Part shown: in pieces, positions 7,121 to 7,425 of the stretch
Layout: each line of letters starts with the position of its first letter
How positions within the stretch are numbered: the first letter of the stretch is position 1
Assembly: GCF_053078305.1 (NCBI RefSeq)
Contig: NZ_CP166879.1
DNA length: 64,000 bases
Strand: one strand, 5' to 3'
Made by a program: the position numbers and the translations under genes
The notes under the pieces: model-generated
The model's input: the letters and a program-made list of their open reading frames with translations, nothing else
Databases searched by the model: none
What the model was told of the DNA's origin: nothing

Positions 7121-7132
7121 ATCATTATCTCA

Positions 7133-7240
7133 TTACAAAGTGAAAGAGAGACGTAGCGCCAGCGCCACCAGCGTTACAAACCAAAGCGGATAAGTCAAAA
7201 ACATATATGGTTTAACGAATGCGTATGTGCAGAGGAAGGT
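7133..7240 (-). pseudogene. arsB: 3' remnant of arsenite efflux pump gene arsB (C-terminal ~26-35 codons only)
   Basis: Minus-strand translation ...KPYMFLTYPLWFVTLVALALRLSFTL* ends 12 nt before the arsC ATG, the expected arsB-arsC junction; no long minus-strand ORF exists between 7120 and 7791, so the rest of arsB and arsR are absent. Confidence 0.5.
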
Positions 7241-7297
7241 AATAGGTGTGAATTTTGAGTTGGCTATTCATTTGAAAGGAGGTCTGAATCAGGACGT

Positions 7298-7327
7298 AAA
7301 AAAACCGACTTTGCGTCGGTTTTTTAC
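7298..7327. terminator. Bidirectional rho-independent terminator hairpin
   Basis: aaaaaccgac-tttgc-gtcggttttttac: GC stem flanked by A-run and T-run on both sides. Confidence 0.55.
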
Positions 7328-7334
7328 TTTCCAG

Positions 7335-7425
7335 CCCTGAGTTGGTGGCTCTGGCTGGAGTGAGAATGCCATCATCTAACGCATCAATGCTAATACCATA
7401 CTGAAACTATTGCAAGGACATGCTG
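7335..7425 (-). ncRNA. agrA: agrA-like antisense sRNA repeat (dinQ locus); boundaries approximate
   Basis: ~35 nt repeat ctctggctggagtgagaatgccatcatctaacgca, a near-copy of the second repeat at 7549..7584 and complementary to cattctcactcc in the dinQ leader (7624..7635). Confidence 0.4.

Follow-up and report, generated by a model that had tools for sequence, protein, structure and literature searches.

An arsRB-deletion allele of the Escherichia coli chromosomal arsRBC operon that keeps arsC and the upstream half of Pars

Contents of the arsC locus

The DNA analyzed here, referred to as the window, is a stretch of 64,000 nucleotides from contig NZ_CP166879.1 of NCBI RefSeq assembly GCF_053078305.1. 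According to an open reading frame (ORF) map and the annotation of the co-linear relative GDSC2227PM, which aligns ungapped over window positions 1 to 13055, the locus, E. coli gor-dinQ-agr-ars in reverse orientation, holds arsC alone between gor/dinQ and slp. The genes and elements around it are as follows.

6695-7120, minus strand: arsC, intact, 141 amino acids (aa), glutaredoxin-dependent arsenate reductase
7121-7132, minus strand: native 12-nt arsB-arsC spacer (TGAGATAATGAT) with the weak GAG Shine-Dalgarno of arsC, from alignment to K-12 and other strains
7296-7379, minus strand: AgrB-type antisense sRNA of the dinQ/agr type I toxin-antitoxin system (Rfam RF02891, 108.1 bits, E = 6e-20)
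7298-7325, minus strand: AgrB terminator, agreeing in sequence with the agrB terminator of the PMC9134189 supplement
7548-7579: AgrB target repeat in the dinQ 5' UTR
7654-7737, plus strand: dinQ toxin CDS, from the annotation of the near-identical GDSC2227PM, untouched by the deletion described below
7791-9143, minus strand: gor (glutathione reductase), the left-hand syntenic anchor

With 295.7 bits, the arsC product exceeds the cutoff of 242 set for NCBIfam model NF007456 (glutaredoxin-dependent arsenate reductase); with 137.2 bits, it also exceeds that of 106.05 for TIGR00014. It has H8, C12, S15, R60, R94, and R107, of which, as in R773 ArsC, Cys12 is the catalytic residue and Arg60, Arg94, and Arg107 form the triad. 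By the curated family cutoffs together with the catalytic residues, the protein is predicted to be of the glutaredoxin-coupled R773/PRK10026 type. An earlier reading of the same DNA, made from the letters and their translations (the original prediction), had described arsC as intact, and the 141-aa ORF with scores above both cutoffs agrees with this. At the DNA level, the gene is 97.8% identical to that of K-12 by BLAST, and it is closest to the K-12 and ERL04-type alleles. The protein differs from K-12 ArsC by F76Y, P100T, P117L, K138N, and R139H. P117L and R139H are absent from all other sampled alleles, including that of the 99.5%-identical GDSC2227PM.

Downstream of arsC, a naRNA4/REP-derived RNA was matched below threshold at 6614-6646 on the minus strand (31 bits versus a gathering score of 59.5); this is probably a mere REP element. 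In strains with an intact arsRBC operon (L006, L007, L009, L014, L018, and L019), an extra divergent regulator of the ArsR/SmtB family lies directly downstream of arsC; the window, K-12, and ERL04 lack this gene. Farther on, an AT-rich ORF of 407 aa occupies the yhiS position (4845-6068, minus strand) and is intact in the window. Elsewhere yhiS is a pseudogene split by IS5 (K-12), annotated as frameshifted (GDSC2227PM), or truncated (N44 and ST131).

On the other side of arsC, the dinQ/agr module contains a single AgrB-type sRNA gene in the window and tandem agrA and agrB in K-12. The match in O145:H28 spans about 235 bp beyond the query, and a second agr copy is probably present there. The copy number of agr appears to vary between lineages. 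A LexA-box-like sequence is found at 7443-7462. Compared with window positions 7349-7579, strain ST131 4433 (L004, 3630-3891) has lost 199 bp between two 32-nt direct repeats, which correspond to the AgrB core (7349-7380) and its target in the dinQ 5' UTR (7548-7579). This loss takes the LexA-box-like sequence and the region between dinQ and agr where promoters would lie, so that the module in ST131 4433 looks inactivated. Strains 5132 and SCAID WND1-2021 (L016 and L017) show the same short arsC-dinQ spacing. In the window, the repeat-flanked region is intact.

The deletion joint and the arsB remnant

The original prediction had called for an alignment to a reference arsRBC operon that would map a deletion junction, and this was run against the K-12 MG1655 locus (L001). 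BLAST returned two collinear blocks. One pairs window positions 7181 to 6500 with locus positions 6177 to 6858 (the 3' end of arsB followed by arsC), and the other pairs 7398 to 7184 with 4275 to 4490 (agrB to the upstream half of Pars). Between the blocks, 1,686 bp of K-12 sequence are absent, namely, locus positions 4491-6176 (MG1655 3,648,490-3,650,175), and 2 nt stand in their place. On the left, the break comes after ...TATCCGCTT, 9 nt beyond the Pars -35 box and therefore between the -35 and -10 boxes; on the right, it falls 15 to 16 codons before the arsB stop. Lost with the segment are the Pars -10 box, the transcription start, the leader, arsR (locus positions 4529-4882 in K-12), and 414 of the 429 arsB codons. 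What is left between the arsB-arsC spacer and AgrB can be described by four elements.

7133-7181, minus strand: arsB 3' remnant, the last 15 to 16 codons (FVTLVALALRLSFTL) plus the stop codon, from BLAST to K-12 and alignments
7182-7183: deletion joint, TG on the minus strand, assignable to neither flank in BLAST against K-12
7184-7295, minus strand: retained upstream Pars DNA, about 112 bp, running from the K-12 agrB-arsR intergenic region to 9 nt past the -35 box
7133-7204, minus strand: chimeric 23-codon ORF (MFLTYPLWFVTLVALALRLSFTL), composed of operator, joint, and arsB tail

In the 64-kb window, tblastn gave no match for ArsR below E = 0.07 and none for ArsB except the 3' remnant. These results bear out the original prediction in that arsR and most of arsB are missing and in that arsB ends 12 nt ahead of the arsC ATG, with its stop codon at 7133-7135. 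The further statement that the minus strand carries no ORF of 60 aa or more between 7120 and 7791 also stands, the longest being 59 aa. Two other points had to be revised. The prediction counted the last ~26 to 35 ArsB codons upstream of arsC, whereas ArsB-derived DNA is confined to the 48 to 49 nt at 7133-7180/7181. The higher count probably arose because the tblastn match to ArsB extends over 27 aa (63%, E = 0.002). Since the DNA that encodes the N terminus of the 23-codon ORF is promoter DNA, with near identity to the agrB-arsR spacer of K-12, the likeness of this N terminus to ArsB is fortuitous. The doubt that the prediction itself had raised, whether the upstream peptide is derived from ArsB, is thus settled in part each way: 15 to 16 codons are, and the remainder is not. 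Nor does the arsB tail run straight into the agr terminator, as had been thought, because the retained Pars DNA lies between the joint and AgrB.

The chimeric ORF had no family match in NCBIfam. Its ATG sits inside the ArsR operator, upstream of the -35 box, and the alignments of B2 alleles show GTG in that place; it is probably not a gene. The valine in the remnant (...TLVAL...) is shared by the intact ArsB proteins of Lelliottia and Pragia and is therefore a natural variant. A weak terminator-like hairpin was detected within the arsB tail (7153-7168), and the same fold is predicted for K-12.

The joint string CCGCTT-TG-GTTTGTAAC is identical in alignments of GDSC2227PM, N44, ST131 4433, O145:H28 RM13514, and 33F4. 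When 100,044 species representative genomes were scanned with degenerate codons, no ArsB carried the Trp codon of the junction, which indicates that this codon was created by the joint. We also considered a 6-nt microhomology, CCGCTT, by way of a natural ArsB allele PLWFVTLVAL. It was rejected because no such allele was present in the 100,044 genomes; a relaxed scan retrieved only PVLFVTLVAL, in Lelliottia and Pragia. As read from the alignments, microhomology at the joint would amount to at most about 3 nt.

Compared with the K-12 operon, the locus is homologous and keeps the same order of arsC, 12-nt spacer, ArsR binding site, and -35 box. It differs in what the 1,686-bp segment carried, and both the As(III)-responsive feedback loop and the pump of K-12 are absent. 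Almost certainly, the locus represents an inherited allele of the chromosomal E. coli arsRBC operon, marked by the deletion of arsRB.

The retained half of Pars and a candidate hybrid promoter

The elements of Pars were placed by way of the supplement of PMC9134189, where MG1655 is annotated with an ArsR binding site (ACACATTCGTTAAGTCATATATGTTTTTGACT), a -35 box (TTGACT), a -10 box (GACACT), and the agrB terminator upstream. Three elements in the window are relevant to transcription of arsC.

7193-7224, minus strand: ArsR binding site (ACGCATTCGTTAAACCATATATGTTTTTGACT), matching the MG1655 site in the supplement of PMC9134189
7193-7198, minus strand: Pars -35 hexamer TTGACT, within the ArsR binding site
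7170-7178, minus strand: candidate extended -10 element (TGT-AACGCT), putative, from the arsB tail

The original prediction had the deletion remove regulator, pump, and promoter together. This holds for the regulator and the pump and fails for the promoter, of which the operator and the -35 box remain. As both survive, a promoterless arsC should not be assumed. Decay of the operator was considered on account of its CCAT half-site, which reads TCAT in K-12, and was rejected because CCAT is also found in the intact operons of PD23, ERL04, and AHB4.

At a distance of 17 nt downstream of the retained TTGACT, the arsB tail offers TGTAACGCT, which resembles an extended -10 element. The hexamer AACGCT agrees with the consensus at 2 of 6 positions, including A(-11) and T(-7), and is preceded by TG. 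The native Pars -10 box, GACACT, agrees at 3 of 6 positions, yet it works. A strict consensus scan reported no minus-strand promoter in 7121-7300, the hybrid -10 included, under a 4-of-6 rule that would miss the native GACACT too. Since this rule is blind to a documented -10 box, a crude sigma-70 position weight matrix (PWM) based on consensus frequencies was written instead. It gave 10.0 bits for the hybrid and 10.5 bits for native Pars, both within the top 0.01% of window positions. In each of the five haplotypes, the -35 box, the TG, and the critical A(-11) and T(-7) are preserved.

In its makeup, the candidate is like deletion-made hybrid promoters: a -35 box that was kept is joined to a fortuitous -10 element, in the geometry TTGACT/17 nt/TGT-AACGCT and with a score near that of the native promoter. 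Unlike them, it is putative and may be coincidental. Roughly 10% of randomly placed right-hand breakpoints would reach an equal score, and the presence of a hybrid promoter is consequently no evidence of selection.

Distribution of the allele and possible expression of arsC

Among 5,426 complete E. coli genomes, the contiguous arrangement arsC-dinQ-gor was found in 1,106, or about a fifth, counted with a 1,151-nt query that had to be covered to at least 80% in one place. The K-12 segment that is missing from the window was matched by megablast in 4,320 of the genomes, and exactly 1,106 had no match. The agreement of the two counts implies that carriers are generally without a second K-12-like arsRB, although very divergent ars genes would escape megablast. 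A 76-nt query across the joint was spanned in at least 758 genomes, which is a lower bound since single-nucleotide polymorphisms (SNPs), for instance in N44, defeat megablast on a short query. Carriers of the allele include ST131 and other B2-like genomes, O145:H28, a member of the phylogroup E lineage related to O157:H7, and further strains. It is an old allele and not a strain-specific accident, and its nucleotide-exact joint can be used as a simple marker.

GDSC2227PM, at 99.5%, is the haplotype nearest to the window; a handful of strains at about 99% and O145:H28 (98.3%) come next, whereas identity to B2-like strains is about 93%. The window is chuA-positive, as determined by register with the GDSC2227PM annotation. 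Its strain probably does not belong to phylogroup B2.

Both the gene content and the arsenite sensitivity are already published. In the passages of Sutterlin 2018 (PMC5923176) considered here, arsRB is lost and arsC kept in phylogroup B2 and in some phylogroup E isolates, the gene order in phylogroup E being that of either B1 or B2, and the state of arsR/arsB is described as loss, not gain. All isolates without arsRB had a sodium arsenite MIC of <128 mg/L. The gene arsC was present in all isolates, for a reason that the authors call unclear. The corresponding passages of PMC9731454 describe ST131 isolates of this gene content, whose As(III) MICs were the lowest of that study. On the strength of these MICs, the arsenite sensitivity named in the original prediction is likely, and a low arsenite MIC is to be expected here as well. 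The window shares its gene content with the published B2/E locus, and its joint is nucleotide identical to those of ST131 4433 and N44; the difference lies in the haplotype. The passages of both papers that we drew on deal with gene content only and contain no junction, retained operator and -35 box, or hybrid promoter. Only the anatomy of the junction and the idea of a hybrid promoter are mildly new. The current understanding of arsenic resistance is unchanged, and a large, clinically important part of E. coli owes its arsenite sensitivity to the allele.

The reading that we lean toward runs as follows. One ancestral deletion almost certainly took 1,686 bp, in K-12 terms, and left two unassignable nucleotides, after which the allele persisted and was shuffled by recombination onto different flanking haplotypes. 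According to the literature, a cell that lacks the ArsB antiporter is unable to extrude arsenite, and its arsenite MIC is low. The Pars -35 box and the TG-extended AACGCT of the arsB tail could then drive constitutive transcription of arsC, unrepressed because ArsR is gone, which would be the likeliest way for the gene to be expressed. Taken as a whole, an arsenite-sensitive deletion allele in which arsC would still be a working gene seems to us rather likely, and about the same can be said of the proposal that arsC is expressed in carriers. That expression stems from the hybrid promoter specifically is a candidate explanation whose chances we place somewhat short of even. About equally tentative is the suggestion that the deletion rewired arsC so that it would be constitutive and ArsR-free and would become As(III)-inducible again only with ArsR supplied in trans.

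The original prediction had arsC probably unexpressed, which is not established. In its fullest form, this view makes arsC a silent relic that lies behind the AgrB terminator and has no working promoter, its decay still to come, and we regard it as a serious contender that is nonetheless not the favored one. The deletion took the native -10 box along with the transcription start and leader, the strict scan was negative, the AgrB terminator lies upstream, and our search of the literature on uropathogenic E. coli (UPEC), ST131, CFT073, and Nissle for expression of the orphan arsC yielded only mentions of yffB and the ArsC family. The nonsynonymous share of segregating sites is also somewhat higher in deletion alleles (14/38) than in intact ones (8/44), a difference that is not significant (Fisher P = 0.08); together with P117L and R139H, private to the window among sampled alleles, it is compatible with relaxed constraint. 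On the other hand, arsC is kept at 80% or more of its length in 5,422 of the 5,426 genomes, so nearly all of the 1,106 arsRB-less genomes necessarily keep it. All nine sampled deletion-allele copies are full length and uninterrupted. Their segregating sites comprise 24 synonymous and 14 nonsynonymous changes, where neutrality predicts 76% nonsynonymous (P = 3e-7); to this synonymous excess, sequence imported from intact-operon strains by recombination may have contributed. Among the five B2-like copies, the counts were 5 and 3 (P = 0.02). Pairwise arsC dN/dS is confounded by recombination and small counts and is suggestive only. This near-universal retention and the synonymous excess argue that arsC may still be used. 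The hybrid element, which scores like a native promoter that itself works with a 3-of-6 -10 box, likewise speaks against silence.

Two further alternatives concern the regulator and the history of the joint. If arsR and arsB were located elsewhere, on a plasmid or in a second ars island, the strain would be resistant and the operator could regulate arsC in trans. The window offers a view of 64 kb of the genome, its ArsR operator is intact, and some E. coli strains do have extra arsRDABC islands or plasmid ars genes (PMC5923176, in the part considered here, and plasmid matches in our genome searches). Nevertheless, we consider this improbable: the window has no ArsR or ArsB homologue besides the arsB remnant, the genomes lacking a K-12 arsRB match equal in number those with the deletion arrangement, and the passages of PMC5923176 report that plasmid ars operons were absent from the isolates studied. 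Recurrent deletion in B2-like strains, O145:H28, and the lineage of the window through a recombination hotspot seems more improbable still. Flanks do differ by lineage, as B2-like alleles have SNPs of their own at distances of 7 nt (left) and 34 nt (right) from the joint, while the window and O145:H28 are K-12-like or E-like in their flanks, the window within those same distances. However, all carriers have in common the exact joint, its two unassignable nucleotides, and a G-to-A change in GTAACG that is absent from every intact allele examined; the short microhomology leaves no repeat that could drive recurrence; and 33F4 turns K-12-like (GGCTGCG) only about 20 nt from the joint. An identical joint with a common G-to-A change suggests a single origin followed by erosion of the flanks through recombination, not recurrent deletion.

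Should the suggestion of a rewired arsC, constitutive and ArsR-free, be true, it would account for the roughly 20% of E. coli that keep an intact arsenate reductase without a pump, and ArsC would have a selectable role apart from ArsB efflux. It also provides a testable hypothesis for arsC as a near-universal core gene even where the pump has been lost.

Beyond the ungapped alignment, two larger segments of the window are absent from the otherwise near-identical GDSC2227PM. The first (13056-21978, about 8.9 kb, between rsmJ and dtpB) encodes a mannitol-type PTS IICBA-like transporter, a sorbitol-6-phosphate dehydrogenase-like SDR, a mannitol-1-phosphate dehydrogenase-like protein, a ribulose-phosphate epimerase-like protein, and a HAD phosphatase. 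Most of these island proteins score below equivalog cutoffs, and the segment looks like a sugar-alcohol utilization island. In the second (29240-45013, about 15.8 kb), two large ORFs of 557 and 499 aa had no NCBIfam match. The same segment includes rbbA (1,596 bits), a galactitol-type PTS IIC, and an FGGY sugar kinase, and GDSC2227PM carries IS1 at that point instead.
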